From contig NC_089431.1 of the NCBI RefSeq assembly GCF_026210795.1, positions 1,612,001-1,676,000 on the forward strand: a stretch of DNA of 64,000 bases, in the 5' to 3' direction. A model generated the notes under the pieces. It searched no databases. It was not told the origin of the DNA and worked only from the letters and a program-made list of their open reading frames with translations. The stretch comes from Rhizophagus irregularis (Eukaryota). Positions within the stretch are counted from its first letter, which is position 1. Every line of letters starts with the position of its first letter. The translations under genes were made by a program, and so were the position numbers. Positions 6,956 through 31,965 of this stretch are shown piece after piece.

Positions 6956-9042
6956 TACTATTGCTGCAGTCCTGCGATAGGACCGTTTGGTTGTGATACG
7001 GTATGGTGCTATGCGCAATTTTCATGTCAGAATCCATATGAGAAAGTACAAGATTTTCAAAATGTGGTAAATCAATTTTTTGGAAAACAAGATTTTTTTG
7101 TCAGAAATAAATTGATCAAAATTTGAAATCAAATACTATTATTTAAAAAAAAACAACAAAAATACAATAAAGTTTACTTCGCACAAGTTAAACTAACTGA
7201 ATTAAATAAAGTAATTATTTTTTATTATATTAACTAAACCAAAAAAAATAAATTATTTCCAATGATTGGTATATATTTAGGGGTGGCAACGGTCGGTCAT
7301 GGTCAGTCATCGGTCGGTCATAACCGGTCAAGAACCTTTGACCGACCGACCGACCGTTGACTAACCGGTTAACCGACCGTTTGACCGACCAGTTAACTGA
7401 TCCTGAAAACGTTTGCGAAATGTATTTAATTGAAATACTTAATAAAAAATGTTTTCGCAACGTTTTCTATTAAAATAATTAAAAAAACGTTTGCGAAACA
7501 TTTTTTTTATTAAACAAGTTAACATTAAACATGGCAGGGAGCTATAGTCATAGTATAATTAGAACTATAATAATTCTGACTTTTTTTTAATTAAGTTGGT
7601 TTATACTACCATACAGTATCATAATTATGATAAATAGTTTTTAAGATTTAAAGAGAATTTCTAAATTTTAACTGGTGGAAAAATTACTGGTAGATCATGT
7701 GATTGTGTATTAAATATCTATGTGATTTATTATGATGATGCAATTTCATTTGGCTCGCTTCGCTCGCCGGGTTTTTCTAGCCAAACCATAACTTTCACTT
7801 TATTTGCAAAATTTTTTATTATATTTAACATATCTATAAAAAAAAATTTGAGAAAATTACTCTTAACTAGCTATTAACATAATTTTTTTCTCATTTGGTA
7901 AAGGATGATCATTTTCGGTTTATTTTGCTTGTTAATCATTTTTGGCTTAGTTATTTCACTTGTTAATCATTTTAAGGTTAATTATCTTGATTGTTGTTTA
8001 TTTTTTGGTTCAAAAATAAAAAAATATATATATCAGAATATGTGATTAACTTTAAATAATAATACAGAAAGATTGTTTATTACTTGATAAAGCATTATTT
8101 AAAATTTACTATCATCATTTTGGAATTATAGCTCTGGAAAAAAAATTTTCATGATTACATTGTAATAAAACAATTCTACTATCCGATTGTTGATCATTTT
8201 TAGTTCTGAAAAAATTACGATAACTGAACATCATAATAATAAGACAATGATAATTAAATTTTACCATTTGGTTGTTGTTTATTGTTTTGTTTCAAAATAA
8301 AAAATTACTTGATATAACATTTATTTAAATTTTATCCATCCAATTGTTGAGAAAAAAAAAATTTTATGATAACATTGTAATAAATCAACAATTATATTAT
8401 CCGATTGTTAATCATTTTTAGAATTACTATCCTGAAAAAATTTTCATGATAGCATTATAACAATAATGAGATGATGATAATGAAAATTTACCATTCGATT
8501 GTTGTTTATTTTTTGGTTTAAAATAAAAAAAATATGTATCTATATTTAAATAAGTAATACAAACAAATTGTTTATTTACATAATATTAAAATTTGTCATC
8601 CGGTTGTTGATCATTTTGATTTGCTAAAAATTTTATCCCACAATTTTTAAGCAAGAAAGAACATTCTATAAAAGTGCAATATCACCTTATGGGTGGGTGG
8701 GTGGCACGTCACGTTATTGTAATGACTTGAAATGATTGACATGTCATGATAGGTTAACGTTAACTTAACATTAACATAAGATTAGTTTTTGGGTGATTTC
8801 CATTTTAAGATGCTGATCCCCATCTTTGGTATTGATTTGCTGATTATATAAATACATTTCAAATCAAGCTTTTCTATTTTAGTATGATCGGCAACCAACA
8901 AATCTTTTAGTGTTTTAATTACATTTCGCAAACGTTTTTAGGATCAGTTAAACGGTCGGTCAAATGGTCGGTCAGAGGTCTTTGACCGACTGATATCAGT
9001 CACGGTCATGACCGGTCATAACCGGTTAATGACCGTGACCGT

Positions 9043-9535
9043 TGTTAACAGGTCCGTCTCAGACTCTGTCAACTATAACTAAACGTTAGGGAGTCAATAG
9101 CTATAACGTAGTTTATATCAGCAAGTCACGCAAAAACACAATACGCAAAATATAACACAATCACAGTTCATTTTTAATATAAGAGTTTATTAAATAGTTA
9201 ATACAAGTTAATCCCTAACTTATACTATCTATTTTCTATCTATCTGACACACTGACACACACTTTAATTTAAGAAAAATCAAAAGATATTTATATAAAAA
9301 TAAAATATAAATAAAATAATATAACTAAAATAAATAAAGTAAATAAAATAAATGTAATAAATAAAAGAAATAATAAAAATAATAAAAATAACATAAATAA
9401 TATAAATAACAAAAATAACAATTGTAACGTTAATCAGATCTACAAAATTATTTGATTACATAATGATTGATCTACTAATTAATCATCTGATTTTTGAATC
9501 ACGTGATTTTTACTGCGCCATAATCTTCGTTATCA
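9043..9535 (-). repeat. 3' LTR of Gypsy A
   Basis: Direct repeat of 28013-28505; two transitions seen by eye (at 9170 and 9258). Confidence 0.95.
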
Positions 9536-9550
9536 AATCTCCCTCACTAA
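9536..9550 (-). other. Polypurine tract of Gypsy A
   Basis: Minus-strand TTAGTGAGGGAGATT abuts the 3' LTR. Confidence 0.7.
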
Positions 9551-9929
9551 ATTTTGAGTTCCCACGAAAAATAATTAAAGCCAAATAAATTTTATCTTGT
9601 CTTTTCACTTCACTCCCAACCCGCTAGTAAATGAAAAAAACTGGTCATCCATGTAATACCAAAACAGTAGGCCCTCGAAAGGGACACGAACCAAAGTCCA
9701 TGTAAAGCTAAGGTATTAGCCTTCTCAAATGTGGCCATCAAATGATCAGGACACGGGTGACATCGATCCTGGGAAGAAATTCATTATCAATTTAAAAGAA
9801 AATCATGAATTATGGGATCGGGATGGGCTGGTAAATCATCAGAAAATTGTTGTAAGTTTTTTTCCATAAATGTTAAAAATCTGGTAACCTAATTAAGATT
9901 TTTCTCGTCTCCTTTCTTTTCTCGTCATC

Positions 9930-10637
9930 ATGGTATACAAGAAATACAATAACCAGAAATCTACGCCAAGAGAACGTATCAGACTAACTAAAAAGAAAAA
10001 TAAATGTAGTTCTCAAAAAACCCATAATAAGCGGTTTTTTGTTCGCAAATCTAAGAAAGAAAAAGAAGAAGGAAAGGAAACGCAAAAATTATCACAAAGG
10101 GCAGTTCGAGTGGCCTCTGAATTTTTTCTTCAAAACAGGGAACTTCGTGAAGAAATAATTCAACTACGTCAAGAAGTTCAAGAACTTCAGGAGGAAGTAC
10201 AAGTCCGAGAAGATTTTTCGATTATAAAATTTTCTCAAGAATCTCAGGTGCGACAAGAACTTCAACAACAAGTTCAACAACTGCAACAACAATTATCGTC
10301 GCTCCAGGAGCAACTCCAAGAAGCTTCGTCACGTGACGAATTAGTTGAACAACAACAAGCTCCTCCTCCTCCTCCTCTTACTAGTTCCGAACAGTATCAA
10401 CTAGTCGTCGAGAATGAAATTATGTTGAATGATATCCAGGAACGTGACGATTTCATTCAACGGCTTAAAAATGAGAGAGTAAATGAACATCTTGCTTTTT
10501 GTCGGCAAATTTCAGCTTTGAAGGAAGATTGCAATAGGTTGCGTCGGGAAAGAAATGCTGCACACCATAGGGCTGAAGGGATGATAGTTTTGCTTAGAAA
10601 TAGAGATAATTCTCGTAATCCTCCTTCTTCCGTATAA
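9930..10637 (+). CDS. Antisense accessory ORF of Gypsy A: basic (NLS-like) N-terminus, Gln/Glu-rich coiled coil
   Basis: 235-aa ATG-initiated ORF inside the LTRs; heptad-like Q/E/L composition and a poly-Pro stretch. Confidence 0.6.
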   Translation: MVYKKYNNQKSTPRERIRLTKKKNKCSSQKTHNKRFFVRKSKKEKEEGKETQKLSQRAVRVASEFFLQNRELREEIIQLRQEVQELQEEVQVREDFSIIKFSQESQVRQELQQQVQQLQQQLSSLQEQLQEASSRDELVEQQQAPPPPPLTSSEQYQLVVENEIMLNDIQERDDFIQRLKNERVNEHLAFCRQISALKEDCNRLRRERNAAHHRAEGMIVLLRNRDNSRNPPSSV

Positions 10638-10897
10638 TTTTCTTTTCTATTATGTAATCATCTTTTATTATTTTGTTATATAATAAATATAATATATATA
10701 TGATAAAAAAAAATTTTTTTTTTTTTTTTTTTTTCGTATAAAATTTTGTAAATTTTCTGGGGCATTGAGTCACATATTCATGCTGATCATTTTTGATCAG
10801 TTTGTTCAACATAAAAACTAATTTGATTTGTCGATCGTCATTGATTTCTAATTTTGTCAATCATTCACGATTAATTTATCGATTTTAAGGATTATCA

Positions 10898-11299
10898 TTA
10901 ACTAAATTCAGCTCCACATAATAATCGAAATTCTTGTGACTTTAACTTTTTCAACATCATAAAAGTTACTAATTTTGTTCTAAATATTTGTTCTACTCCT
11001 ATATTAAGAAAAATATGATAGGTCCTAATACATCCTTGATAAAAGTGTGTCGTCATTCTAGATCTAAATAAAGTTTTCTGAGCACGTGATAATATTTGAT
11101 TTTCTAATAATTGTCCAAGTTTATAAGCATAAAATAAAGTGTATTGTCTCCTTTTTAGTCGTGAATATCTTTGTAATAATTGATAGTATTGGATAAATTT
11201 TTGGTCTGATGATGATTCGTCATTTACAGGATCTACAGGAAAAATTATTTCTATTGGTTCAATTTCCATTAAATCGTTGAAAATATCTACTGGAGTCAT
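10898..11299 (-). CDS. Sense accessory ORF downstream of integrase in Gypsy A, unknown function
   Basis: 133-aa ATG-initiated ORF 30 nt after the integrase stop; protein-like composition (AYKLGQLL, RTYHIFLNIGVEQIFRTK). Confidence 0.65.
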   Translation of the reverse strand: MTPVDIFNDLMEIEPIEIIFPVDPVNDESSSDQKFIQYYQLLQRYSRLKRRQYTLFYAYKLGQLLENQILSRAQKTLFRSRMTTHFYQGCIRTYHIFLNIGVEQIFRTKLVTFMMLKKLKSQEFRLLCGAEFS

Positions 11300-11329
11300 T
11301 TTGAAAATTATTTCTTATTTACTGAACGT

Positions 11330-12610
11330 CTAGTCTTTTATATTATTTATAACAACCATAGGTTGCCAATTTTGTCGATCATGATATAATTTAAGTAACG
11401 TTCCATTAACTGGAGTTATTAAAACTCGTCCTTCCAAAGTTCTTAATTTGTATGATCCATTTAATAAAACTTGATGGATGTAAAATGGTCCTTTCCATTT
11501 AGGGTCTAATTTTCCAGACCATTGTTTTTCTTTAGCTGCATTAAAATAAAGAACTTTGTCTCCTATTTGGTAAGAAATATTTTTCTTTAATTTTGCGTCA
11601 TGTCGATCCTTTTGTTTCTGCTGTGATTTATTGATCTGCACACGTGCCTCTTCTCTGATTTGTGGTACATCATCAATTAAATGTTTGACACGTTTTAATA
11701 AAGTATCAGAATTATTACACAAATTATCATCATTATCTATTGGTAATTTTGCTGATCGTCCATATACTAAAAAGAAAGGTTCTATTTTTGTTGAAGAATT
11801 TTTACTGGTTCTATATGCAAATAAAATTGGTGCGATAAATAAATCCCATTCATCAGTATCTGTTGCAGTTTTTGCTAAAGCTTCGCATAGTGTTCTATTA
11901 AATCGTTCCACTAATCCATTTGTTTGTGGATGATAAGGAGTAGAAAAATGATGTTTAATTTGAAATCGCTGGGTAAGACTGTCGATCATTTTATTATTGA
12001 AATGAGATCCTCTATCTGATAAAATTCTTGAAGGACATCCATGTTGACAAATAATATTTTCATAAATAAAGGTAGCAACATTTTCTGCTGTAGCTTCTGA
12101 TAAGGCTTTCGCTTCAGGCCATTTTGTTAAATAATCTATTGCGACTACAATATATCTATTACCTTTTTTAGAGCGTGGTAAAGGTCCTACTATATCTATT
12201 CCAATTTGATAAAAAGGTTCAAAGGCAGGTATTGGGTGTAATGGTTCTGTTCTTTTATACTTTCCCCTTCTTTGACATTGATCACATGCTTGAACATACG
12301 CTCTTATATTTTCATACATTTGAGGCCAGTAATACCTGGAACGTATTTTCTCAAACATTATATCTGTAGCAAAATGTCCAGCTGTTGGATCATTATGCAT
12401 CATAAAAAGAACAGGTTCTGCTTCATAGTTTCTGATTACTCTGAGTAAATTGTTTTGTTGTCTTTTGTCTATTTTGTAGATAAAGTTATTTTTGATGATA
12501 AAATTTTTAGAAAAATTAATAAATTTGCGCTTTTGTTGTGTTGTTAAATTTGGTGGTAGTTGTTGTGATTGTAAATATTGATAAAGGTTTTGGTATTGTT
12601 GTAGTTCCAT
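11330..12610 (-). CDS. Gypsy A integrase (stand-alone ORF)
   Basis: HHCC (H..GH..CDQC), catalytic IGIDIVGP, ILSDRGSHF, NGLVERFN, and GPF motif; no chromodomain. Confidence 0.95.
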   Translation of the reverse strand: MELQQYQNLYQYLQSQQLPPNLTTQQKRKFINFSKNFIIKNNFIYKIDKRQQNNLLRVIRNYEAEPVLFMMHNDPTAGHFATDIMFEKIRSRYYWPQMYENIRAYVQACDQCQRRGKYKRTEPLHPIPAFEPFYQIGIDIVGPLPRSKKGNRYIVVAIDYLTKWPEAKALSEATAENVATFIYENIICQHGCPSRILSDRGSHFNNKMIDSLTQRFQIKHHFSTPYHPQTNGLVERFNRTLCEALAKTATDTDEWDLFIAPILFAYRTSKNSSTKIEPFFLVYGRSAKLPIDNDDNLCNNSDTLLKRVKHLIDDVPQIREEARVQINKSQQKQKDRHDAKLKKNISYQIGDKVLYFNAAKEKQWSGKLDPKWKGPFYIHQVLLNGSYKLRTLEGRVLITPVNGTLLKLYHDRQNWQPMVVINNIKD

Positions 12611-12731
12611 ATTGTTTTGATTGATTATTATTAAAGGTTTTGTTGTTTTAATTGGTTAATAATTGAATTGGATAATTATATAGATAATAAATAAATAATA
12701 ATAATAAATAATAAAATAAAAAAAAGAAAAT

Positions 12732-14036
12732 TTAATAAAGATGGGAAAAGAAATTAAATCGATATTTCCTTTGAGAGTGTTCCCAAAATGGTTCATTAAT
12801 TAAATATTCAGGTTTAAATTCAGGTTGAATAATGTTGAATTTCTTAGGAATTCTTTGTGGTCTACTATATCCATCATTTTGTACTTCATAAATATTCTTT
12901 TCTTCGCCAATAATTGCTAGAAAACATTCAGCTGAATTAATAGGTTCTTCTGTTGGATTAATTCTTGAGAGAGCATCTGCATTGGCATTGGCTTTTCCAG
13001 CTCTATGCTGAATAGTAAAATCATATTGCTGTAGTTGCATAATCCATCTCGCTCTCCTTCCAGTTGGAATTTTTGAAGTTTGTAACCATTTGAGGGCAGA
13101 ATGGTCAGTAACTACTGAGAAAGGTAATAATCCTAAATAATGCTGAAAATAATTAATTGCCCATACAATAGCCAAACATTCTAGGTCTGTTACAGCATAG
13201 TTTTGTTCATGTTTATTTAAACTTCTACTTGCATAAGCAACTACATATTCTTTTCCTTCTTTATCTTTTTGAGAGAGTACAGCTCCTAATCCTGTTCCAG
13301 AAGCATCAGTATATAAAATAAAAGGTTGTTCAAAGTCGGGATACCTCAAAATAGGTGCTGAGATTAATCTTTCTTTCAGGTGTTCAAATGCTTTCTGTTG
13401 CTTCTCTGTCCATTGAAATGGAGTTTCTTTTTGTAATAACTTAGAGATAGGCTTCGCAATTTTAGAAAAATCCTTGATAAATTTTCTGTAATAGGAGAAT
13501 AATCCTAAAGCCGATCTAATTTCAGTAACAGAGGTGGGTGCAGGAAAATTTCTAATCTTCTCTATTTTTGAAGGATCAACTCTTATACCATCTCTTCCTA
13601 CGATATGTCCAAGGAAAGCAATACTAGGAAGGCAAAAATAACATTTCTTCAGCTTAATTTTTAAATTAGCATTTCTGAGCGCTTGGAAAACTTGAGTAAT
13701 ATTATCCAGATGTTGTTCAAAGGTCTTTGAGTAAATAATTATGTCATCTAAATAAACAGCCACGAATTTTCCCAAAAACTCTTGTAATACATAGTTCATT
13801 AACCTTTGGAAGGTTCCTGGAGCATTCCTCAATCCAAAAGGCATGACGTTAAATTCATATAATCCAAAATCTGTTATAAAAGCTGTTTTTTCCTTGTCTT
13901 TAGGATCCATTTCCACTTGCCAAAAGCCACTAGCAAGGTCTAATGTAGAGAACCAATTAGCAGTTCTGAAGGATTCAAGCAAATCATCGATACGAGGTAA
14001 GGGATATGCGTCAGGTTTTGTAACTTTATTGAGCGG
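12732..14036 (-). pseudogene. Gypsy A pol, 3' part (RT-RNase H), cut by insertion of B
   Basis: LDLASGFWQV, MPFGL, VYLDDII, YTDAS, TDHSAL, NANADALSR. Joins 24948 onward in frame (RMCVDYRPLNKVTKPDAYPLPRID) once B and one TSD copy are removed. Confidence 0.95.
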
Positions 14037-15147
14037 TGAGATCCCCCAATTCCCTCTGTCATCAATTTACAGAGTTGCCACATCGAACGGGCATTCCCAT
14101 GGTCGAACGAACGAATAAACGAACGAACGAACAATTAAACGAGCGAGCAATTAATCAACAACATAATTAACAAACAATATAATCAACAAACAACACACAA
14201 CAACATATAACAGCAACATTCTTGGTTCACAACATAAATAACGTTAGTAATATAAAACGTCGAACGATATAAAATAAAATTTAACTTCTCTAAATTTTCC
14301 CCAAATTATATCCACTTTTACCTTTAATTTCAAACTTCGATAGCTCTCGCTACGAATTATTACTTTTCAAAAACGTATATTTAATTCATCTTAAATTTCC
14401 ATTTTATTCAATTAAAATTAATTAAGCAAACATTAATTAAAGTTTAGGGCGAACCTATTACCTTTAATTAATATTAAACTTCACTAATAAGTAATTAAAT
14501 GAAACTTATATTTTTATTGAGTTCTGTGGATGAGAACTATGGAATTACCTTGAATTCCGCTCTCTATATATACAATTTTTATGCTACTTTCTATTCTATC
14601 TATATACTATCTTTTATGTTCTTTTTACATATTATCTTTGAATTATCTTTCTAATATACTATCTATATTTTAAATACGCTATCTTTTAATATGCTATCTT
14701 TTAATATGCTATCTTTTTATATATGTTCTTTTTAATATATTATCTTTTACGTTCCATCTTTATACTATCTTTTTATATTATCTTTTACATTATTTTGTGT
14801 TCTTTAATCTTTCTGACATTATTTTATATGTTCTTTTAATTCGCTTTATGTGTTTTGCTTATAATCTATCTTTTGTGGCTTATAATTATTCTTTCTTATC
14901 GTTCTTATTGTTAAAGATCGCTAAGCCGCAATTGATCGACTCTATTTATCCTATTGGTTCTTTGTCAATCATTTGATAAATATTACATCATGTAGATCAT
15001 TACTCTTCCTAAATGTTTATCCTTTTCGGCTAATTATTTATCCATCTACGCCAATTCATAATCAATTTGTTCGTTCTTAATATTTGGCAATTACATTTGG
15101 TGATTGGATTTTATCATCTTTTCGTGCTTGATATTCGACCGTTTACA
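14037..15147 (-). repeat. 3' LTR of Gypsy B
   Basis: Direct repeat of 23833-24943; no differences noticed by eye. Confidence 0.95.
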
Positions 15148-15163
15148 TTATCCCCCTCTTCGC
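15148..15163 (-). other. Polypurine tract of Gypsy B
   Basis: Minus-strand GCGAAGAGGGGGATAA directly before the 3' LTR. Confidence 0.8.
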
Positions 15164-15223
15164 TATTTGTGACCTCACAAATAACTTTAATAGAATCGAA
15201 CTCGTGTCTTATCCATAATAATT

Positions 15224-16450
15224 TTAATCGAATCGAACTCGGGTCTTATCGAATACCTCTTTTCCTTTAATTACTATTTTTGGTGTAAATCCCCTTCGAT
15301 CATAAAATTTCTTTAACCATTCTCCATTTTGTGGTGTTTTTAGTATTCTTCCGTCTAATTCTTTGAGTTTATACGCTCCATTTCCAAATTCTTCGTGAAT
15401 TAAATATGGTCCTTTCCATTTGTTCTGCAATTTTCCAGACCATTGTTTTTCTCTCCACGCTTCGTATAATAATACTTTTTCTCCTATTTCAAATTTAGGT
15501 TTCCTAATTCCTCTTTTGTCATGTTGTTGTTTTTGTTTTTCTTGAGCTTCTTCCACGTTCTCTTTCATTTTTCTTCTTATTACTGGTAGCTCCTCAATTA
15601 GTATTTTTACTCTATCAGCTAACGTTATCTTGTTTTCATCTTTGTCTAATGGTAGTTTCGCTCTCCTTCCGTATGTTGCGTAAAAAGGTTTAATTCTTGT
15701 TGATGATTGCTTCTTTGTCCTATATGCAAATAATACGGATGGTATATGCTTATCCCAATTTTCTTTTCCTAATTTGGCTAATCCTTCGCATAAAGTTTTA
15801 TTGAATCTTTCGACTAAGCCATTTGTTTGTGGCCTATATGGTGTACTTAATCTATGATTTATTCCACATCTTTCTACTAATTCTTCCATCATTTTATTGT
15901 TAAAGTGAGTCCCTCTATCGCTAATTATTTTCTTTGGACATCCATGTCTACAAATTATGTCCCTCCAAATAAATTCTACTACCTCTTTTGCTGTAGCTTC
16001 TTTTAGTGGTGCGGCCTCAGGCCATTTTGTAAAATAATCCATTGCTACTACAATGTACTTATTTCCCTTTTCTGTCTCTTTTAATGGTCCAACTATATCT
16101 ATCCCGATCATTTCAAATGGTTCATTTACCTTTATTGGCATCAATTCGTTCTTTCCTCTTGGTTTTCCTCTCATTTGACAATTCCAACACGTTTTTACAT
16201 ATTCTTCTACATCTTCTTTCATATTTTTCCACCAATAATTTTCTTTTATTCTATCTAATGTCGCTTCTACTCCAAAATGTCCTGATAATTCGTTATCATG
16301 CATCATGTACATCAATCCTTCGTATTCATAATCCCTGATTACTCTAAATTTGTTTTGTCCTTTTACTCTATATAGAATTCCTTCTTTCAATTCATATTTA
16401 TTCTCCTTTTCGATATTGTCAATTATTCTCTTGTAATTATTTTCTTCCAT
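15224..16450 (-). CDS. Gypsy B integrase (stand-alone ORF)
   Basis: H..GH..CWNC zinc motif, IGIDIVGP, IISDRGTHF, NGLVERFN, GPY motif. Confidence 0.95.
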   Translation of the reverse strand: MEENNYKRIIDNIEKENKYELKEGILYRVKGQNKFRVIRDYEYEGLMYMMHDNELSGHFGVEATLDRIKENYWWKNMKEDVEEYVKTCWNCQMRGKPRGKNELMPIKVNEPFEMIGIDIVGPLKETEKGNKYIVVAMDYFTKWPEAAPLKEATAKEVVEFIWRDIICRHGCPKKIISDRGTHFNNKMMEELVERCGINHRLSTPYRPQTNGLVERFNKTLCEGLAKLGKENWDKHIPSVLFAYRTKKQSSTRIKPFYATYGRRAKLPLDKDENKITLADRVKILIEELPVIRRKMKENVEEAQEKQKQQHDKRGIRKPKFEIGEKVLLYEAWREKQWSGKLQNKWKGPYLIHEEFGNGAYKLKELDGRILKTPQNGEWLKKFYDRRGFTPKIVIKGKEVFDKTRVRFD

Positions 16451-16510
16451 AATACCTCTTTAATTGATTTCGCTTCTAAATTTGTTATTTTCGTTATGTG
16501 TTCTGTATTT

Positions 16511-18592
16511 TTAGTTCTGTGCTCTTCTCCATTTCTCCACCTCTTTAAATACTTTTCTCCAACTACTATTGTCATTTTTAACTTTTACTCGACTGTATCT
16601 TTTAGTATCTTTGTACACGCCCTGATTTTCTTCAAACATTCTAACCATGTCCAAATATTCATCCTTCTTTAATGTCGGATATGATGATTTTTCCGTTTTC
16701 TTTGTTTCTCTTCCAATGTAATTTTTCCAACATACGTCGCCATCTTTTTCTAAAAATATCACTATTGATTTATCTATTGTTTCTTTCAATCTGAATATTT
16801 CTTTTTCCATCTCATGATTTCCATGTGGAGTAATTAATCCTCTGTCAAAACTTTTCGTCTTTTGATAATAATATTCACAATATGGTGATTTGTCTAAAAT
16901 TATTATATCTGTATCTTCGTCATATTCTAGCATTCTTCTGTTTATTTGTTCCACTACTTCTTTTCTGAATTTCCATTCTGTCTCCATCTTTGATTCATAA
17001 AATTCATCTTTATCTTTTCTTCTTCTCTTATAAGTGTTGAATCTTACTTTTAATCCTTGCTTTTCCCATTCTTCAATTAAATTTTGTACTATACTTGTCT
17101 TTCCTAATCCATCTACTCCGTCGATTATTACTATTTCTGGTTGATCCTCTACTATCTTTAATAACCTACTTAATGCGTCGGCGTTCGTATTTTCTTTTCC
17201 CGACCTATGTATTACTTCAAAATTATATTGCTGTAATTCCATCACCCATCTTGCTCTTTTTCCTTTTGGTATCTTTGCATTCATTAATCCTTTTAATGCA
17301 CTGTGATCTGTTATTACTTTAAATTTTCTATCGATTAAATATTTATGAAAATGTTGAATTCCCCAAACTATTCCTAAACATTCCAATTCTGTTATCGGAT
17401 AATTTTCTTCTGCTGGTAATAAACTTCTACTTGCATATGCTATTACTACTTCTTTTCCTTTTTCATCTTTTTGACTTAATACTGCACCTAATCCTTTCCC
17501 TGATGCATCTGTTATTAATAAAAATTCTTTCTTCCAATCTGGATGTTGCAATATTGGATATTGTATTAACTTTTCTTTCAATTTTTCAAACGCTTCTTGT
17601 TGTTCTCTTCTCCAAATGAAAGGTATTCCCTTCTTTCTCAAATCACTTATTGGTCTTGCTATCTTTGAAAAATTCTTCACAAATTTTCTGTAATATGAAC
17701 AAAGTCCCAAAAATGATCTTACTTCTTTCACTGTTGTTGGTGCCTTCATTTCTTTTATCTTTTCTATCTTTTTATCGTCTGGCCTTAATCCATCATTTCC
17801 TACTATATGTCCTAAAAATTCTATATTTCTTTCCAAAAATCTACATTTCTTTAGTTTTATTATTAAATTATTCTCCTGTAACTTCTTTAATACTTTTTCC
17901 ACATGTTCCATATGGTCTTTTAAATTTTCTGAATATATCATAATATCGTCAATATATACTACTACAAAATCGTTTATGTATTCTTCTAATATTTCATCCA
18001 TTAATCTTTGAAATGTTGCTGGTGCATTAGTTAAACCGAACGGCATTACATTATACTCAAATAATCCTTTTGAACATACAAATGCTGTTTTTTCTTTGTC
18101 TTCTTCTTTCATTTCTACTTGATTAAATCCTGCCGCTAAATCTATACTTGAAAACCATTTTGCTTTTCTGTATTTGTCTAACAATTCATCCATTCTTGGT
18201 AAAGGAAAACTATCCATTATAGTTATCTTGTTTAACTTTCTGTAATCAATACAGAATCTATATTTTCCCATTTTCTTTCCTGCTAACGTAACCGGTGAAC
18301 TCCATGGACTTTTTGATTTCCTTATCCTTCCTTGTTTTAACAATTTATCCACTTCTTCGCTTATAAATTTTGCCTTTTCATCTGTTTCTTTGTATCTTCT
18401 TTGCTTTATTGGTTCTACCCCCTCTTTTATTTTTATCTCATGTTGCGCCGCTTTTGTTCTTCCTTCTATCTCTTCGTCATATTCCAAAATATCTTGGTAT
18501 TCTAATAGTAATTTTACCATATTTTCCCAAATTGGTTCTTCTACTTTCCCTATACTTAGTTTTTGCATAAATTTTCCACTTGGTTCGAGCAT
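16511..18592 (-). CDS. Gypsy B RT-RNase H fused to a C-terminal P-loop nucleoside-monophosphate-kinase-like domain
   Basis: YIDDI RT core and ITDAS/TDHSAL/NADALSR RNase H, followed by IVIIDGVDGLGKT (Walker A), IIILDKSPYCEYYY and VIFL motifs. Confidence 0.9.
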   Translation of the reverse strand: MLEPSGKFMQKLSIGKVEEPIWENMVKLLLEYQDILEYDEEIEGRTKAAQHEIKIKEGVEPIKQRRYKETDEKAKFISEEVDKLLKQGRIRKSKSPWSSPVTLAGKKMGKYRFCIDYRKLNKITIMDSFPLPRMDELLDKYRKAKWFSSIDLAAGFNQVEMKEEDKEKTAFVCSKGLFEYNVMPFGLTNAPATFQRLMDEILEEYINDFVVVYIDDIMIYSENLKDHMEHVEKVLKKLQENNLIIKLKKCRFLERNIEFLGHIVGNDGLRPDDKKIEKIKEMKAPTTVKEVRSFLGLCSYYRKFVKNFSKIARPISDLRKKGIPFIWRREQQEAFEKLKEKLIQYPILQHPDWKKEFLLITDASGKGLGAVLSQKDEKGKEVVIAYASRSLLPAEENYPITELECLGIVWGIQHFHKYLIDRKFKVITDHSALKGLMNAKIPKGKRARWVMELQQYNFEVIHRSGKENTNADALSRLLKIVEDQPEIVIIDGVDGLGKTSIVQNLIEEWEKQGLKVRFNTYKRRRKDKDEFYESKMETEWKFRKEVVEQINRRMLEYDEDTDIIILDKSPYCEYYYQKTKSFDRGLITPHGNHEMEKEIFRLKETIDKSIVIFLEKDGDVCWKNYIGRETKKTEKSSYPTLKKDEYLDMVRMFEENQGVYKDTKRYSRVKVKNDNSSWRKVFKEVEKWRRAQN

Positions 18593-18627
18593 CTTTTCCG
18601 TCTCTCTCTCTTCAGAGCCAAGACTTT

Positions 18628-19140
18628 CTATTTAAAATTCTGGTGCATTTTGAATACCTCTCCTTCATCGTTGCTTTCATATTCTTCGTCATCCTCGCTC
18701 TCCTCACTTTCATATATTGCTTCTCTTTCATATCCTACTGGAATCGTTATTATTTCTCCTTGTTCTTCTATTCTTAAGGTATGATCTTCAAAATTTATTT
18801 TTGCATTATACAGCTTCCATATATCATTTCCCAAAATTAGATCCTCTTCTTCTGAATCGATTACTTCAACTTCTTTTAGTATTTCTAATTCATCTTTGTA
18901 TCTCAAAGTTATATTTGCCTTTCCTAACGCTGCTATCTTTTGCCCATTTGCTATTGTACATCTAAATTTACTTTTTCCAAATATAGGTATATTCAATCTC
19001 CTCCTTAATTTGTCTGTTATCACACTTACTGCTGCTCCAGTATCTATTATTACATTCACTAATTGATCTTTAACTTCTAATTCTGTTCTCATTGCTGTAG
19101 TTCTTTTCTCTTCATTTTTCATAGTTCCCACCGAGTGTAG
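18628..19140 (-). CDS. Gypsy B aspartic protease segment, in frame with gag after a TGA
   Basis: IIDTGAAVSVI and LILGND retropepsin motifs. Confidence 0.9.
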   Translation of the reverse strand, partial: LHSVGTMKNEEKRTTAMRTELEVKDQLVNVIIDTGAAVSVITDKLRRRLNIPIFGKSKFRCTIANGQKIAALGKANITLRYKDELEILKEVEVIDSEEEDLILGNDIWKLYNAKINFEDHTLRIEEQGEIITIPVGYEREAIYESEESEDDEEYESNDEGEVFKMHQNFK

Positions 19141-22100
19141 TCAATTTTTCTCGTTTATGCTTCTTGGTCTATATGTTCCTTCTCTCAATTGTTTATGATA
19201 CTTAGTATTCTCATTTATCATTTGTCCAATTGTTATATTCGCTCTACAATTTTTCACGTCTTCCACAATATCGTAAGGTGGTATTCCATCAGTTAATCTT
19301 GGTCCATATTCTCTGGGCTTTCCTGTCCCTGATGGCTTTGTTCTAACCCAATTTCCAAATTCATCTTGCCGCATTCCAGGGTAAAATGCTTTGCCTTCTT
19401 TTGTGAACATTGGTTTATAAAATCTTCCATCTTTTGTCATGGGTCGCCGACCATAATTATAATCTTCTGGTCCTATTGGATTATCCCAATTTTGACTATC
19501 TTTGTATACATTATTTTGTTCTATCCTTTCGGGCGTATATCTTGGTGTTGTTGTTCCACTTGGTATTTCTCTATCATCCATTCTATTTCCCGCTTCTCTT
19601 AATTCTTCTTGTAAATTTCCTTCTTCACCATTATTTTTATATCCCACTACTGGATTCGTCCTTCTTGTTTGTCTTCTTGTCTTTACTGCGTTATCTTTTG
19701 CGTATAATTCATTATGATAATTTAATTCCCTATCTTCATAATCATCGTAATAACCTTGTGTATAATACATTTCACCGTATTGTGGTTCCTCATCTTCATA
19801 TCCATTATAATCATATTCTTCTTGATCATAATACTCGTCCATCATATTCACTCCTACATTCCTTCTTTTCTCTGGACACTCTCTTGAATAATGACCAGCT
19901 CTACCACATGTATAGCATGTCGGTACTCTTTTTTGGAATGACTGATTTCTTTGAATTGGTTGATTTCTTTGCATTGGTTGGTTTCTTTGCATTGGTTGGT
20001 TTCTTTGTGGCAATCGCCTATAGCTCTGACTCGCTAAATTTCTTAATCTTTCATTCTCATCTTCTAACATCTTAATTTGTAACTTCGCAAAACTGTCTGC
20101 TAATTCATCTACACTTACCCCTTTATTATTCCTTACATTCCCTTGAACAATAGGTTCTTGTCTTCTTTGTTCATCATTAATTCCTTTTGGTTGTACTTTA
20201 TCTGTTAATGCTTCTAAACCTCTTTCTACGTTTTTTGCTATCTGAAATGTTGCATTTAGATCTGCTGGATTTCCCATTACTACGTCTTTAGTAAAGTCCG
20301 GTTTTAATCCTCTAATAAAAATTCTCTTTTGCTGATTTGCTGCTACTGCTGCATCACCTCCCGCTCTCTTTAACATATATTTAAATCTCGTAAGGTATTG
20401 AGTTACATTCTCGTCTCCCTGTCTAATCTTTTCTAATTGTTCTAGCCATCTATCTTTAATTTCATCGCTTGCATACTTTCCAATTATTCTTACTCTTAAT
20501 CTTAAATTATGATCTCCATTAACATTCCAATCGACAATATTTACTCCTTCAGTCTTTAACCAATCTGCTGCTCCTCCCATTAATTTCGCTTTTGCTAATC
20601 TAAATCTCTGTGCGTCATCATTCCCTAAACCATTCGCTGTAAATGTCTCCTCAAATTTATCTGCCCATTCTTCTGGATCTTCTCCACTGGTACCATAAAA
20701 TACTGGTATTTCCACAATAGCTCCCCTATTTGCGTTTAAATTTTCTATTGCATTAGTATTCGCTTGAACTTCTCCTTGTAATCCTGTCAATGTTACTGGT
20801 GGTAATGCTAAATTGTTCCAATCTGCCCCAATATCATGATTATACATAGTATTCATTAGTGCTCTTAGATCCGCTCTGAGTTCATCTCTTGATGCTGCCA
20901 TTGTTATCTTTGGTTTTATTGGTGGTACTGGTATTATTGGTATTATAGGTGTTTTCTTCAATTCTTTGTTTTCCTTTTTGCTTTTTGATTTTTTACTTGA
21001 GCCAATTTCGGGTCCTTTTATATCCTCTTCCACTTCATCTTCATTATCTATTGGATTTTCTTTATCAATATCTTTTTCACATTCTATGCAAGTTTCTTTT
21101 CCAATTTTGAATTCTTTCTTTAATCTTTCAATTTCACATCTTTCACATTCTTTTGTGTTTTCAACTCTCCATTGTAATATTTGTTCATCTAATTCTTCAT
21201 CTTCAAGATTCCATATTGTTAAATATTTCTTCATAAATTCATATGTTGTTATTATCTTTGCGGTTACTCCAAATTTTCTTATTCTTTCAATTTCCGTTAT
21301 TTCTACATCATATCCCATTCTTTTCAAATCCATTCTAATTATTTCTTCGAATATCTTTGTTGTTTCTGTTTCTTCAACATTATTAGATTCAATAGATTCA
21401 TCAGATTCCTCATCTGACATTTCTTCATTTTTACTAATCGGTAAATTTCCTTCTTTCTCATCGTCTGTTTCTGTTATAGTATAGCTTCTTGGTGTATCAT
21501 CACTATCTGTTTCATCTATATTTAATTGTTCAAACCCTCTAATCTTATCATAAACTTTTTCAACTATCTCTTTTCTAATTCCCCAACCATGTTCACGAAC
21601 TCTTATGTGCATTGTGTGCAACATTAATCTAATTTTTTGTTTGAACGCTTCTATCTTTTCTGTTGACTCATCTTCTTTTAATTCAGCTTCTTCATATAAT
21701 ATATTTTTGTATCTTCTAATAGTGCTATCCTTACATTCTATAAAATCTGTTATAGCTTCTTTATACCATTCATAAAATTCCCCAAATCTTATATTCACAT
21801 CCCAATCTTCCAAAATATAACCATATCTTATTAATTCTTCATTCCCTATCAATCTGTCCATTGTTTCATCTTCTTTATCATTTTCTATACAATCTCTCAC
21901 GATTACTATTATTATTATCTTTAATCCTTTCTCTCTTAATACTGGTTGTTTCAAGTATCTTATCGATTCGACCATTACATCTAATGCATCTCTAGTCCTT
22001 CCTTTTGTATAATTATTTCTTTCTTCACTATCTATACTTAATAAATTTAATAACGCTCTTATAGTTTCTGCGTTATAATCTTTTATCGTATATTCAAATT

Positions 22101-22275
22101 TTTGCAATATTTTCCAAAATTTCTTGAAAACTTCTGGTGTATCTCTTATTGGATAACATATTTCACATGTTATATTTTCTCCTCTTAATTCGTCTATATC
22201 TATATTTCCGATATTTTCGTCATGTCTTAATTTGTGGTTCTCATAATCGACCCTCCAAGTTTCATACCATTCCAT
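19141..22275 (-). CDS. gag: Gypsy B Gag with a long (~450-aa) N-terminal extension, capsid-like region and CCHC knuckle
   Basis: FYGTSGEDPEEW retrotrans-gag motif, RQGDENVTQY, CYTCGRAGHYSREC. Confidence 0.9.
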   Translation of the reverse strand: MEWYETWRVDYENHKLRHDENIGNIDIDELRGENITCEICYPIRDTPEVFKKFWKILQKFEYTIKDYNAETIRALLNLLSIDSEERNNYTKGRTRDALDVMVESIRYLKQPVLREKGLKIIIIVIVRDCIENDKEDETMDRLIGNEELIRYGYILEDWDVNIRFGEFYEWYKEAITDFIECKDSTIRRYKNILYEEAELKEDESTEKIEAFKQKIRLMLHTMHIRVREHGWGIRKEIVEKVYDKIRGFEQLNIDETDSDDTPRSYTITETDDEKEGNLPISKNEEMSDEESDESIESNNVEETETTKIFEEIIRMDLKRMGYDVEITEIERIRKFGVTAKIITTYEFMKKYLTIWNLEDEELDEQILQWRVENTKECERCEIERLKKEFKIGKETCIECEKDIDKENPIDNEDEVEEDIKGPEIGSSKKSKSKKENKELKKTPIIPIIPVPPIKPKITMAASRDELRADLRALMNTMYNHDIGADWNNLALPPVTLTGLQGEVQANTNAIENLNANRGAIVEIPVFYGTSGEDPEEWADKFEETFTANGLGNDDAQRFRLAKAKLMGGAADWLKTEGVNIVDWNVNGDHNLRLRVRIIGKYASDEIKDRWLEQLEKIRQGDENVTQYLTRFKYMLKRAGGDAAVAANQQKRIFIRGLKPDFTKDVVMGNPADLNATFQIAKNVERGLEALTDKVQPKGINDEQRRQEPIVQGNVRNNKGVSVDELADSFAKLQIKMLEDENERLRNLASQSYRRLPQRNQPMQRNQPMQRNQPIQRNQSFQKRVPTCYTCGRAGHYSRECPEKRRNVGVNMMDEYYDQEEYDYNGYEDEEPQYGEMYYTQGYYDDYEDRELNYHNELYAKDNAVKTRRQTRRTNPVVGYKNNGEEGNLQEELREAGNRMDDREIPSGTTTPRYTPERIEQNNVYKDSQNWDNPIGPEDYNYGRRPMTKDGRFYKPMFTKEGKAFYPGMRQDEFGNWVRTKPSGTGKPREYGPRLTDGIPPYDIVEDVKNCRANITIGQMINENTKYHKQLREGTYRPRSINEKN

Positions 22276-23812
22276 CGTTGTAATCGTTCATCCAGAATCT
22301 TAACTAAAATCTCACCTCCTTTTATATATTTATACTTCACTCTTATCGTTTTTATTTTCAATCTTCTATGTTTCTATTTTCAATCTTCTATGTTTCTATT
22401 TTCAATCTTCTAAACATTCTTTCATCTTTAAATAGATTGCTTCTTTCAATCTTTAAATTTCAATTTTATATATTTACTACGCCATATTCTACTATTAATT
22501 TTTACTGCGCCTCAAAATTTCAAAAATTATTCTAAGTCCACAATCTCCTCAGGCTGTGGAGGTTTTTTACTGCGCCATAAAACTTATCTTTTATCACCGA
22601 TATCCATAATTTCACATGTCACAAACTCCAAAATTTTCATAACTTTTAGAGTTCGCGGATTTCCAATCTTTCTTATCGTCCACATAAATCCTTCCTACTA
22701 TATATTCTATATTATATAAATTAATCTATAGTACACATAATGTCGTTCTTTTCAGATAAATGTCCTTCTTTTCAAATAAATGTTCTTTTTCAGATAAATA
22801 TTCTTTTTCAAATAAATGTTCTTCTTTTAAATAAATGTCCTTCTTTTAAATAAACGTCCTTCTTTTCGGATTTTACTCTATTATTAAATACTGCACGTAA
22901 TGTTCATTATACGGCTCGTTAATGTGTAAATATCCTTCTATTTTATCTTCTTTTAACGGAACATTGTAATGAGAGCGTGAACTAGGACACTACACCAGGA
23001 ACCTTCGTCTGAAATGTAGCCTAGGACCTGTAACAATACAACGTATCCATTTTTCCTCCTTCGTTGGTCGACTTGTCTCTTAACGGGTGAATCTAACCTT
23101 CCAAAATCCAGTTTCAAAAGTCATCAGCTATCCATAAAACTCATCTAAACCAACTTATCTTTCCTCAAATTGGTGGACCTATACTGGGCTTATCTCTATC
23201 TTTTTCCCATTGGGTAAAAGCATGATAGTTTACAGGTTTGTCCCATTTTATCCATTCAATGTTTCTTGATAGTAGGTGTCTTTACAATCTTCATTCCCCG
23301 TCCCCAAAGCAATTTGCGCATTATTGAGCTGGGTATCCAGATTTGACGTAACCCATACGTTATAATCCTTAATGTCGAAGAATAAAAATTTTCCAATTTC
23401 GAGCATTTATCCAAAATTCAAACTCAGAGGTAACCCATACCACACAGATGAACCCCAGATAATACATTGGTGTTCTCCCATTATTAATCTTTATTCCAAA
23501 ACTCATCTTTCACTTCCACATCTCCTTATAAAATTTCTCAGGTACTTTATTCCCGAAAGAAATATTCTTGTGCTTTCTATCAATTAGGTGATTACTTGCA
23601 CAACAACAAACTTCAATCTTTCACCTTTTCAAGTTTTTTACTCAATTAAATCCTTATTGATTTATTGGTTCCTTTTGAACTCGTTAAAACCTGAAATCTA
23701 AAAATAAATTCTAAAATAAAATATTGATTAATAATACCTATCAGTGACTTACTAACGAAATTAAATTTTCATATTCATTATAATAATAATCATGTGATGA
23801 TGATCATTTCCT

Positions 23813-23830
23813 TTCTCGGAGCATGCACCA
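23813..23830 (-). other. Primer-binding site of Gypsy B, tentatively tRNA-Gly-like
   Basis: TGGTGCATGCTCCGAGAA 2 nt inside the 5' LTR; complementary to a tRNA ending UGCACCA. Confidence 0.65.
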
Positions 23831-23832
23831 TA

Positions 23833-24943
23833 TGAGATCCCCCAATTCCCTCTGTCATCAATTTACAGAGTTGCCACATCGAACGGGCATTCCCATGGTC
23901 GAACGAACGAATAAACGAACGAACGAACAATTAAACGAGCGAGCAATTAATCAACAACATAATTAACAAACAATATAATCAACAAACAACACACAACAAC
24001 ATATAACAGCAACATTCTTGGTTCACAACATAAATAACGTTAGTAATATAAAACGTCGAACGATATAAAATAAAATTTAACTTCTCTAAATTTTCCCCAA
24101 ATTATATCCACTTTTACCTTTAATTTCAAACTTCGATAGCTCTCGCTACGAATTATTACTTTTCAAAAACGTATATTTAATTCATCTTAAATTTCCATTT
24201 TATTCAATTAAAATTAATTAAGCAAACATTAATTAAAGTTTAGGGCGAACCTATTACCTTTAATTAATATTAAACTTCACTAATAAGTAATTAAATGAAA
24301 CTTATATTTTTATTGAGTTCTGTGGATGAGAACTATGGAATTACCTTGAATTCCGCTCTCTATATATACAATTTTTATGCTACTTTCTATTCTATCTATA
24401 TACTATCTTTTATGTTCTTTTTACATATTATCTTTGAATTATCTTTCTAATATACTATCTATATTTTAAATACGCTATCTTTTAATATGCTATCTTTTAA
24501 TATGCTATCTTTTTATATATGTTCTTTTTAATATATTATCTTTTACGTTCCATCTTTATACTATCTTTTTATATTATCTTTTACATTATTTTGTGTTCTT
24601 TAATCTTTCTGACATTATTTTATATGTTCTTTTAATTCGCTTTATGTGTTTTGCTTATAATCTATCTTTTGTGGCTTATAATTATTCTTTCTTATCGTTC
24701 TTATTGTTAAAGATCGCTAAGCCGCAATTGATCGACTCTATTTATCCTATTGGTTCTTTGTCAATCATTTGATAAATATTACATCATGTAGATCATTACT
24801 CTTCCTAAATGTTTATCCTTTTCGGCTAATTATTTATCCATCTACGCCAATTCATAATCAATTTGTTCGTTCTTAATATTTGGCAATTACATTTGGTGAT
24901 TGGATTTTATCATCTTTTCGTGCTTGATATTCGACCGTTTACA
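23833..24943 (-). repeat. 5' LTR of Gypsy B
   Basis: Copy of 14037-15147 with TG...CA termini. Confidence 0.95.
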
Positions 24944-24947
24944 GCGG

Positions 24948-26186
24948 TCTATAATCAACACACATTCGCAGGTCTCCTCCTTTCTTGTCTACTATTACTA
25001 CTGGTGCAGCCCATGGGCTCATGGATTTCTTTATCATTCCTTGTTGTTCCAACTTCTTTATTTCTTCTCTAAGGAATTCTTTCTTCTTAGGGTTAGTTCT
25101 GTAGGGACTTCTTGCTTGAGGTGCAGCGTCTCCAGTGTGGATTTGATGTTTAATTAATCCAGTTCTCCCAATATCAGTCTGGCTCTTTGCACAAATATCT
25201 TCATTGTTGTTCAATATTTGTTGGAATCGTGTCTGTTGATAATCTGTAAGCGGTCCAACATGTAGGTCTTTTTGGATATTCCACTCATTTCCTTTTTCTG
25301 CTTGAGCTAAGAATAGTGCAGGATTATCAGTTTTATCTTCATCATCTTCAGTTAGGTAATCATTTAAAATATCTTCTAATAAATTATATTGGTCAGGAAT
25401 TTCCTCCTTTTCATCCCAAGGGTTATAGTTTAGTGGTTGTTGATACCATTGTTCCCATATTTCTTCATCTTCACTTGATTCACTATTAAGAAGGTGAATC
25501 TCTTTTTCAATTAGGTCATCCTCATACTCATATTCATCAAAAATTTCGTCTATTTCATTGTCAATTTCTTCTTCTTGGAAAGATACATATCTGGGAACTT
25601 CTCCAATATGAATTGAAATAGGTGCAAGAATAGTTTTAGCTAGGAAAGTCAATTGAACTGATTTATTATTGAAATCAAGTACAGCTCTGGTACGCCTAAA
25701 CCAGTCAGTTCCTAAGAGTAGGGTTTCATCCTTTGAGTCAATAACATGGAAAGTGGTAGGGATAAGGAGAGTTTGAATTACTATAGGTACTTTTTCTATT
25801 TGTCCTAAGGCTCTGTTTCTTGTCCCATCCGCAGTGACTACAATAGTGTTGGAGGGTTTAGTGATTTCCAATCTCAACTTTCGAGCAAGAGATTTGGTGA
25901 TAACACAAACAGCAGCTCCTGAATCTAAAATTGCATAAACAGGATCTCCTTTAATTCTCACTGCACATTTCACAGCAGTGGTGTCTCTAGTATCACCTTC
26001 TTCCGAATCAGAGATTCTATCTACATAGTTAGTTTCTTGAGTCTTAGGTGGTCTTCTCAAAATTCTGGCAAAATCTTTCTTTTGGTCGTTATATTTCAAA
26101 AGTTGTCCAATCTTTGCTGAAGATGGCATATTTAATATGTCATCTGAAATGCGATAAGGAGGCATCTGTTCAATAATTGAGGGCAT
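24948..26186 (-). pseudogene. Gypsy A pol, 5' part (protease and start of RT)
   Basis: ILDSGAAVCVI, LLLGTDW, SPWAAPVVIVDKK, RMCVDYR; truncated by B. Confidence 0.9.
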
Positions 26187-27979: not shown

Positions 27980-27991
27980 AAATCTCTTATG

Positions 27992-28009
27992 ACCTGGCAG
28001 GAATCACCA
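27992..28009 (-). other. Primer-binding site of Gypsy A, tentatively tRNA-Val-like
   Basis: TGGTGATTCCTGCCAGGT 3 nt inside the 5' LTR. Confidence 0.6.
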
Positions 28010-28012
28010 CTT

Positions 28013-28505
28013 TGTTAACAGGTCCGTCTCAGACTCTGTCAACTATAACTAAACGTTAGGGAGTCAATAGCTATAACGTAGTTTATATCAGCAAGTCACG
28101 CAAAAACACAATACGCAAAATATAACACAATCACAGTTCGTTTTTAATATAAGAGTTTATTAAATAGTTAATACAAGTTAATCCCTAACTTATACTATCT
28201 ATTTTCTATCTATCTGACACACTGACATACACTTTAATTTAAGAAAAATCAAAAGATATTTATATAAAAATAAAATATAAATAAAATAATATAACTAAAA
28301 TAAATAAAGTAAATAAAATAAATGTAATAAATAAAAGAAATAATAAAAATAATAAAAATAACATAAATAATATAAATAACAAAAATAACAATTGTAACGT
28401 TAATCAGATCTACAAAATTATTTGATTACATAATGATTGATCTACTAATTAATCATCTGATTTTTGAATCACGTGATTTTTACTGCGCCATAATCTTCGT
28501 TATCA
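28013..28505 (-). repeat. 5' LTR of Gypsy A
   Basis: Copy of 9043-9535. Confidence 0.95.
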
Positions 28506-31301: not shown

Positions 31302-31965
31302 TTTTTTTTTTAATTAGAGATTTTTTTCGATATTATTAAATTGATGCAATTCTTACATGGATAGAACTTCATTGTCGTTTACTTTTTTTTAGACTTCTTT
31401 ATGCTTTCAAAATATTCTGAATTCGAATTTCAAATACATCGGGAAATTTTTTGGGGTGCAGAACTGCGGAGATCTGTAAAATTAGCAGATCTCCGCTTTT
31501 TTTTTGTCATTTTTTGTGTATTTCTGCGAAGTTCTGCAAACTTTGCAACTTCGCAGATAATTGAATATTTTTATCTATAAAATCAGTAAAATTCTGCAAT
31601 TTTGCAGAATTTCATTTAACAGAAAATTTAAAACATGCCAGTTTTGCGAAGTTCTGCGAAATAGCAGATCTTCGCTTTTTGTCCTTTTTTTTTGCGAAAC
31701 TCTGCGAAATTCTTTAACTCAAAATTGCGGGTTTATAATTGCGTTTAAACTTTGAGTAACTAACTAATTAAACTTTTCGATTTCAATTAGTAATTAAGCT
31801 TAATTAAGCTTTTCGATCATTTCCGTTGACAATTTATTTTCGCTAAAGTTTTTTAATAGTTTTTTTTTAATACTTTCGTTAAAGTTTTTCAACAAATTTA
31901 CAAATTTTATTTTTTAAACTTTCTGACTTTACTTTCGTTAAAGTTTTCCAGTTTTCCAGTAATTT

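Follow-up and report, generated by a model that had tools for sequence, protein, structure and literature searches.

A predicted thymidylate/deoxynucleoside kinase-fold domain joined to the reverse transcriptase-RNase H frame of Ty3/Gypsy elements in Rhizophagus irregularis and other Glomeraceae

Results

The window analysed here is a 64,000-nucleotide stretch of the Rhizophagus irregularis genome (contig NC_089431.1, positions 1,612,001 to 1,676,000, forward strand; coordinates below are those of the window). It carries a 10.9-kb Ty3/Gypsy retrotransposon, element B (14037-24943, minus strand), in which the open reading frame (ORF) for reverse transcriptase (RT) and RNase H runs on in frame into a P-loop domain with a predicted thymidylate kinase/deoxynucleoside kinase (TMK/dNK) fold. 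Element B is an intact, young and recently transposed copy: its long terminal repeats (LTRs), each 1111 bp with TG...CA ends, are 100% identical to each other, as an earlier note on this DNA had said in proposing recent transposition, and the element is flanked by a 4-bp target duplication, GCGG, at 14033-14036 and 24944-24947. By Pfam, its domains follow the order gag, protease, RT, RNase H, integrase and are spread over four ORFs, with no single pol. The features are as follows.

23833..24943, minus strand: 5' LTR of element B, 1111 bp, TG...CA, 100% identity with 14037-15147
23813..23830, minus strand: likely primer-binding site, beginning TGG, 2 nt past the 5' LTR
19141..22272, minus strand: gag ORF, 1043 amino acids (aa), with a long N-terminal part, capsid and CCHC knuckle; TGA-CTA stop context
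18628..19140, minus strand: aspartic protease ORF, in the same frame as gag, beyond the gag stop
17165..18631, minus strand: RT and RNase H part of the RT-RNase H-kinase ORF (RVT_1 E 8.5e-45; RT_RNaseH E 3e-37)
16511..17155, minus strand: P-loop domain of predicted TMK/dNK fold, 214 aa, in frame behind RNase H, up to the stop
15224..16459, minus strand: integrase in its own ORF, ATG at 16450; H2C2 zinc finger, rve and SH3-like tail
15148..15167, minus strand: polypurine tract, directly ahead of the 3' LTR
14037..15147, minus strand: 3' LTR of element B, identical copy of the 5' LTR
9042..28505, minus strand: host element A (Gypsy, without the kinase), LTRs at 9042-9535 and 28012-28505, a 494-bp match of 99.6%

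No tRNA gene was found within the window.

The RT-RNase H-kinase ORF (16511-18631, minus strand) encodes 693 aa from its first ATG at 18592. The YIDD of RT lies at 17956-17945 and the end of RNase H, NADALSR, at 17185-17165 (minus strand), beyond which the frame stays open for 214 codons, to 16511. This P-loop extension and its quoted motifs, on which the earlier note was built, were all located, and none of 20,000 shuffles of the 642-base extension was free of stops (longest run 129 codons). Its base composition agrees with that of the remainder of element B. Since integrase has a separate ORF, the RT-RNase H ORF ends in the kinase-like domain, which is not internal to one pol polyprotein. 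Element B is inserted into the RT of element A, which it interrupts; the RNase H ORF of element A ends before any such domain, again as first described.

An AlphaFold2 model of the domain, built on 47 aligned relatives, has a pLDDT of 92.9 and a pTM of 0.89. Foldseek lists Giardia deoxyadenosine kinase (dAK), bacterial TMKs and human dGK in the top rows (TM about 0.6-0.68), with viral dNK and TMK proteins similarly ranked, and VIA-align gives a tie between S. aureus TMK (Z 16.3, root-mean-square deviation 2.8, 179 aligned residues) and human dCK (Z 16.0, deviation 3.3, 199 aligned). The best profile library-wide is PHROGs phrog_761, 'thymidylate kinase' (E 3e-14, residues 8-209), which has no curated cut-off and is matched by 47/47 aligned family members; an ESM Atlas feature search returned phage clusters and TMK-like clusters at 0.95-0.96. 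Weak matches to KTI12/PSTK-like and polynucleotide-kinase proteins involve the same fold. FtsY and PPR matches in PDB sequence searches were set aside as P-loop-only or chance. The nucleoside monophosphate (NMP)-kinase fold of the TMK/dNK kind that the earlier note expected, with P-loop core, acceptor lobe and LID, is thus well supported as a prediction, model and structural comparisons being in agreement.

In TMK and dCK, roles are assigned to the DR(Y/F) Arg, the REP motif, the catalytic Glu after beta2 and the LID RxxxRxR; the Arg of the DR motif is catalytic in both families. Counted over 40 Gypsy-type members, the corresponding sites of the domain are these.

17096..17134, minus strand: beta1 and Walker A IVIIDGVDGLGKT, GxDGxGKT, D15 and K19 invariant in 40/40
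17018..17038, minus strand: N40 and the basic K43-R44-R45-R46 patch, at the site of the dNK catalytic Glu and the TMK REP
16865..16900, minus strand: DKSPY[CS]EYYYQ motif ILDKSPYCEYYY, matching TMK DR...S..AYQ and dNK DRS...D, with Arg replaced by Lys

Walker A is kept (K19 in 40/40, T/S20 in 39/40), as are the acidic P-loop residue of TMK type (D15 of GxDGxGK, 40/40), the Mg-site D88 (39/40) and a single LID Arg, R149 (40/40); a VIFL strand lies at 16762-16751 (minus strand). The position of the dNK catalytic Glu is N40 in 40/40, and the TMK REP motif is absent, the aligned letters being TYK. Residues new to this family, K43-R44-R45-R46, F63-R64 and E94, are invariant or nearly so. Judged by these residues, the domain fits the canonical pattern of neither TMK nor dNK.

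In a profile comparison, small phage TMK-like sequences reached 98%, TMK 97% and dNK 81-90%, with sets that were small (5, 6 and 7 sequences) and partly picked by likeness to this kinase family. The metagenome protein P0082, a true dNK, had been removed for this comparison; as a single sequence it is the top outside match of the family profile (38.5 bits, profile positions 3-180). A 99.5% match to dNK was discarded as circular, P0082 having stood on both sides of the comparison.

The domain is widespread. The closest database protein, labelled Rhizophagus irregularis, is 99.5% identical over it, and searches returned overlapping sets of 38 proteins of 381-1213 aa, 73 of 117-375 aa, 48 representatives and 19 longer ones. 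All named matches are from Glomeraceae (Rhizophagus irregularis, R. clarus, R. diaphanus and Glomus cerebriforme), many of them automatic gene models, and the rest are metagenome records, soil included; some fragments already bear the automatic annotation 'thymidylate kinase', without retroelement context. The domain is present in 159 of 164 collected proteins: 46, counting that of the window, have RNase H ahead of it on one polypeptide, 7 have no RNase H but integrase behind it, 10 have a Nudix domain before it, 95 are free ORFs or fragments, and the remaining one is an odd model. The direct passage from RNase H to kinase seen in element B recurs in 15 other proteins, and two raw metagenome contigs, L001 and L002, hold the junction within one ORF. 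In a look for expression, no piece among the contig matches listed spans the junction by 31 letters on each side.

True members number 24 among the 33 metagenome loci; the other nine (L025-L033) are weak generic P-loop matches and were excluded from family counts. (One of these weak matches, L025:2-1805, is a bacterial-type locus in which a 5-hmdU DNA kinase helical-domain gene adjoins a TMK-like gene.) Seventeen loci are of Gypsy type, with RNase H upstream in 8 (4 fused, 4 as a separate ORF) and integrase downstream in 11; 16 of them have one or both of these neighbours and the 17th is too short. The kinase itself may share a chain with RNase H or with integrase, or stand alone. Read from gene order, the slot between RNase H and integrase is fixed across the Glomeraceae Gypsy lineage and the state of fusion is variable.

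We estimated the ratio of non-synonymous to synonymous substitution rates (dN/dS, Nei-Gojobori) between the window domain and the 17 Gypsy-type loci. For the kinase domain the ratio was 0.03-0.28 in 17/17 comparisons, values that are rough because dS is near saturation in most pairs. Against L001 it was 0.055 (60 synonymous and 27 non-synonymous differences; Fisher p 3e-32), with 0.045 for RNase H; against L002 it was 0.033, next to 0.018 for RT, 0.059 for RNase H and 0.108 for integrase. By this measure the constraint on the kinase domain is on a par with that on RT, RNase H and integrase, the core enzymes. Of the two conditions under which the earlier note would give up its reading, a domain without the NMP-kinase fold or one confined to this copy and free of purifying selection, neither is borne out, and the domain is, as far as comparative sequence can tell, a lineage-wide, selected cargo domain of Glomeraceae Gypsy elements.

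Where the domain came from is less clear. The earlier note had proposed looking for a viral, endobacterial or host donor; our search identified none, with no close prokaryotic or viral relative in genome contigs, viral contigs or phage tblastn, only weak P-loop matches (5 in genome contigs, 5 in viral contigs; best phage tblastn E 0.3), and P0082 as query returned nothing in viral contigs. Nor does phrog_761 name a donor, because the family is broad and matches in 14/14 control genomes. All five small phage TMK-like genes that were checked adjoin dUTPase/MazG-like, thymidylate-synthase or dCMP-deaminase genes. Distant relatives of the domain, at 33-42% identity, are Nudix-kinase fusions. Behind the gene of this Nudix-kinase clade, a Mrr-like nuclease ORF follows in L018, L019, L020, L023 and L024 (by Pfam Mrr matches in L019, L020, L023 and L024, and in L018 only by likeness to L020), and a Gypsy integrase comes next in L023 and L024. 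The recurring pairing of a pyrophosphatase with the kinase favours a role in nucleotide metabolism. In other subfamilies a linker of 40-60 residues before the kinase lines up with the final strand and helices of Nudix; with an hhalign probability of 4% (E 0.01) and 1/8 Nudix proteins scoring better than all 50 shuffles, it is only suggestive of a Nudix remnant.

The earlier conclusion that element A lacks the domain and that element B had therefore acquired it is not secure, because in the RT-RNase H tree the placement of element A among kinase-bearing elements has p-AU 0.57; on these trees, element A may instead have lost the kinase.

Several further observations concern the elements themselves and their relatives. 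The cassette of kinase followed by Mrr_cat_2 nuclease is seen at L023:135-2103, L024:3-2433 and L019:64-1870. L020:1-13947, a 14-kb metagenome contig, contains a Ty3-like RT-RNase H, RS-repeat gag-like ORFs, several further ORFs, the Nudix-kinase and the Mrr-like nuclease. Neither terminal repeats nor, in the scanned ORFs, an integrase were seen; L020 is possibly an undescribed large retroelement.

The gag ORF of element B ends in TGA-CTA-CAC-TCG-GTG-G (19143-19125, minus strand), in frame with the protease, and this stretch is unchanged in L002:372-395 despite near-saturated synonymous sites; UGA-CUA is a readthrough context, and the RT ORF of L020 also begins LHS behind a stop. The protease/RT junction is likewise kept at the nucleotide level (window 18640-18595, minus strand, and L002:880-925) and consists of TTTTAAATAG followed by a 9-pair hairpin of -10 kcal/mol, with no covariation in the 2 sequences. 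By its sequence the junction is likely to be a -1 frameshift signal at the protease stop. Integrase has a separate ORF in both window elements (16459-15224 and 12655-11330) and in L002, L006, L007, L009 and L010, its ATG often overlapping or adjoining the upstream stop, an arrangement that suggests re-initiation or a separate mRNA. Both elements also have a long pre-capsid region (22272-20900 and 28003-27242, minus strand) with a common C..CYP....F..FW-like motif, for which we found no meaningful Pfam match. Past its integrase and before the 3' LTR, element A has two additional ORFs, at 10898-11314 (minus strand) and 9897-10637 (plus strand), one of them antisense and coiled-coil-like.

Elsewhere in the window, broken ORFs at 42283-46529 resemble a primase and a D5-like helicase, and with the neighbouring ORFs up to about 55200 the region is possibly a large DNA element. 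A tandem array at 56237-56910 has a 50-base period in about ten overlapping registers. Broken ORFs at 33061-35111, flanked by inverted repeats (31435-31476 and 37878-37919), and at 59671-61371 are by likeness of Plavaka-like transposase type.

Discussion

The above results show that Gypsy elements of Glomeraceae carry, between RNase H and integrase, a conserved domain with a predicted NMP-kinase fold. The reading we favour, and which seems to us close to an even call, is that it is a predicted ATP-dependent deoxynucleoside monophosphate (dNMP) kinase feeding the supply of deoxynucleoside triphosphates (dNTPs) for the element's own reverse transcription. The domain would be catalytically active with ATP as donor. 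Its acceptor would be a nucleotide already carrying a phosphate, a dNMP, because the dNK catalytic base is lost (Asn) and the invariant KRRR, R64 and R149 are predicted to face the acceptor site. The deoxynucleoside diphosphate (dNDP) formed could become dNTP through the host nucleoside-diphosphate kinase, with a benefit where host pools are low, for example around non-dividing nuclei. In the subfamily of element B, fusion to RT would carry the kinase into the particle. The module may have originated as a phage-like pair of pyrophosphatase and NMP kinase, a pair perhaps still visible in the Nudix-kinase fusions, whose Nudix half would have been lost in the Gypsy lineage. A parallel for a dNMP kinase at this place is the dUTPase of non-primate lentiviruses, which is encoded at the same position, between RNase H and integrase, and according to passages of one paper matters in non-dividing cells (PMC4531489).

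Several observations, however, weigh against a dNMP kinase that supplies the element. The Arg of the DR motif is replaced by K89 in 39/40 members, so that of the parallel with the DRx(2-3)S..Y-type motif drawn in the earlier note the position holds and the Arg itself does not. The first LID Arg position is N145 in 39/40, leaving R149 alone of the LID RxxxRxR; with these changes the domain may be slow, altered or non-catalytic. The match to Pfam Thymidylate_kin (PF02223) is sub-threshold (E 9e-4; 19.5 bits for the domain and 20.8 for the whole ORF against a gathering score of 27), and the window protein, P0001, has no match to PF01712 (dNK, gathering score 27) at E up to 1; the distant relative L020 scores 22 bits with the latter. 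The closeness of the phage sequences in the profile comparison is biased upward, because that set was found with this kinase family as query. The product of a dNMP kinase is dNDP, which is not a substrate of RT. The free and integrase-fused sister forms indicate that the domain need not be tethered to RT. Kinase and RNase H distances are only weakly correlated (Spearman 0.21, p 0.096), and two proteins, P0013 and P0014, fall into different clades of the kinase tree, a quick tree, and the RT-RNase H tree; together these suggest module swapping or chimeric gene models. Finally, a yeast study reports that de-repression of ribonucleotide reductase brings no rise in Ty1 cDNA (PMC3002893).

Among the alternatives, the domain might act on nucleic acid, as a polynucleotide-end kinase or as a clamp that binds ATP and holds the tRNA primer, RNA or cDNA ends, with KRRR binding the backbone. 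The invariance of the basic patch, the loss of the dNK base, the weak KTI12/PSTK-like and polynucleotide-kinase matches of the same fold, and the constant company of RNase H and integrase, enzymes that handle ends, are all consistent with this. The best structure and profile matches over the whole domain, however, are to TMK, dNK and phage TMK-like proteins, and the polynucleotide-kinase matches reach no further than the P-loop region, with E values of 0.004 at best; we hold such a role to be unlikely.

We also consider it improbable that the domain serves pool editing or counter-defence, either removing or recycling, with a Nudix partner, dUTP, oxidised or modified dNTPs or a nucleotide signal, or guarding against the linked Mrr-like nuclease. 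The PD-(D/E)XK-type ORF behind the Nudix-kinase clade gene in 5 loci, the location of the phage look-alikes in pyrimidine-handling clusters and base-site residues unlike those of TMK and dNK point in this direction; yet neither Nudix nor Mrr adjoins the kinase in element B and the 17 Gypsy-type loci, where the kinase is nevertheless under selection. A bolder version is that retroelements of arbuscular mycorrhizal fungi acquired a phage-like editing module (Nudix pyrophosphatase, NMP kinase and Mrr-like nuclease), in which a kinase with an altered pocket would steer a non-canonical nucleotide to or away from the element's cDNA, as a mark of self or to counter defence, and that the Gypsy subfamily of element B welded this kinase to RT. 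We regard it as a long shot.

It is quite improbable that the domain salvages deoxynucleosides in the manner of dNK, adding a phosphate to the free 5'-OH. The top outside sequence for the family profile is indeed a true dNK, P0082, more residues can be aligned with human dCK than with TMK (199 against 179), and the acceptor lobe, which lacks the TMK insert, is as long as in dNK; however, the Asn in place of the catalytic Glu in every member counted, the TMK-type P-loop Asp, the reduced LID Arg cluster and, without P0082, the lowest profile score of the three sets (81-90% against 97-98%) argue otherwise. The idea of a neutral passenger, host-gene fragment or assembly chimera in one copy, which could appeal to automatic gene models of which some (P0013 and P0014) are perhaps chimeric, is refuted by the recurring junction, the raw contigs with the junction in one ORF, a dN/dS far below 1 and the matching base composition, and its chance is minimal.

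If the domain is an active dNMP kinase, as we tentatively prefer, nucleotide supply would limit retrotransposition in R. irregularis, and retrotransposons, like DNA viruses, could bring their own precursor enzyme. In the main model fungus for mycorrhiza, a whole Gypsy lineage retains the predicted kinase under selection apparently as strong as that on RT, in the slot that holds dUTPase in lentiviruses. The domain defines an uncharacterised predicted kinase family between TMK and dNK and, being small and soluble, is directly assayable.

A nucleotide-kinase cargo of Gypsy elements is apparently undescribed so far. No retroelement pol gene with a nucleotide kinase turned up in the literature, with supplements, Repbase, Dfam, GyDB and subscription journals outside the scope of the search. 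The main-text passages of PMC6431247, PMC5408684 and PMC3248453 contain no mention of a kinase, and those of the R. irregularis transposable-element papers PMC11075540 and PMC8647823 hold nothing relevant, although their supplements or element libraries might list the domain.

dUTPase is the nucleotide-metabolism enzyme known from retroelement pol genes. Like the kinase, it is an accessory enzyme, and the lentiviral form sits in the same RNase H-integrase slot, that of basidiomycete, rotifer and planarian Ty3/Gypsy elements between protease and RT (PMC4531489, PMC5408684, PMC6431247); dUTPase in retrotransposons is described as rare (PMC5408684). As far as these accounts go, element B differs in having a predicted P-loop kinase, not a hydrolase, at the C-terminus of an RT-RNase H ORF with integrase separate. 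With thymidylate kinase (PF02223; S. aureus 4QG7, Aquifex 2PBR) the domain shares the predicted fold, the P-loop Asp and the D..........YQ spacing. It differs from it in scoring below the Pfam cut-off, in DK for DR, in lacking REP, in an acceptor lobe about 18 residues shorter and in an identity of about 11-16%. With the dNKs (PF01712; human dCK 2NOA, Giardia dAK 8PUU, Mycoplasma dAK 2JAQ) it shares the predicted fold, a colinear acceptor lobe and one LID Arg, whereas Asn stands for the catalytic Glu, Arg at the base-contacting Gln position and DK for DR, with a reduced LID Arg cluster and a TMK-type P-loop. The phage kinases of phrog_761 have a similar D[RK]xxxSEY motif and are paired with MazG/dUTPase-like pyrophosphatases, as fungal relatives of the element B domain are with Nudix; no individual phage sequence, however, is close to the element B protein in tblastn. 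Fixation of extra domains in LTR elements is rare, according to a paper on orchid Gypsy elements (PMC9289625), whose AlkB/2-ODD domain is likewise an extra enzyme domain conserved lineage-wide in Ty3/Gypsy. The element B domain is of another enzyme class and, in this subfamily, is fused in frame to RT-RNase H.

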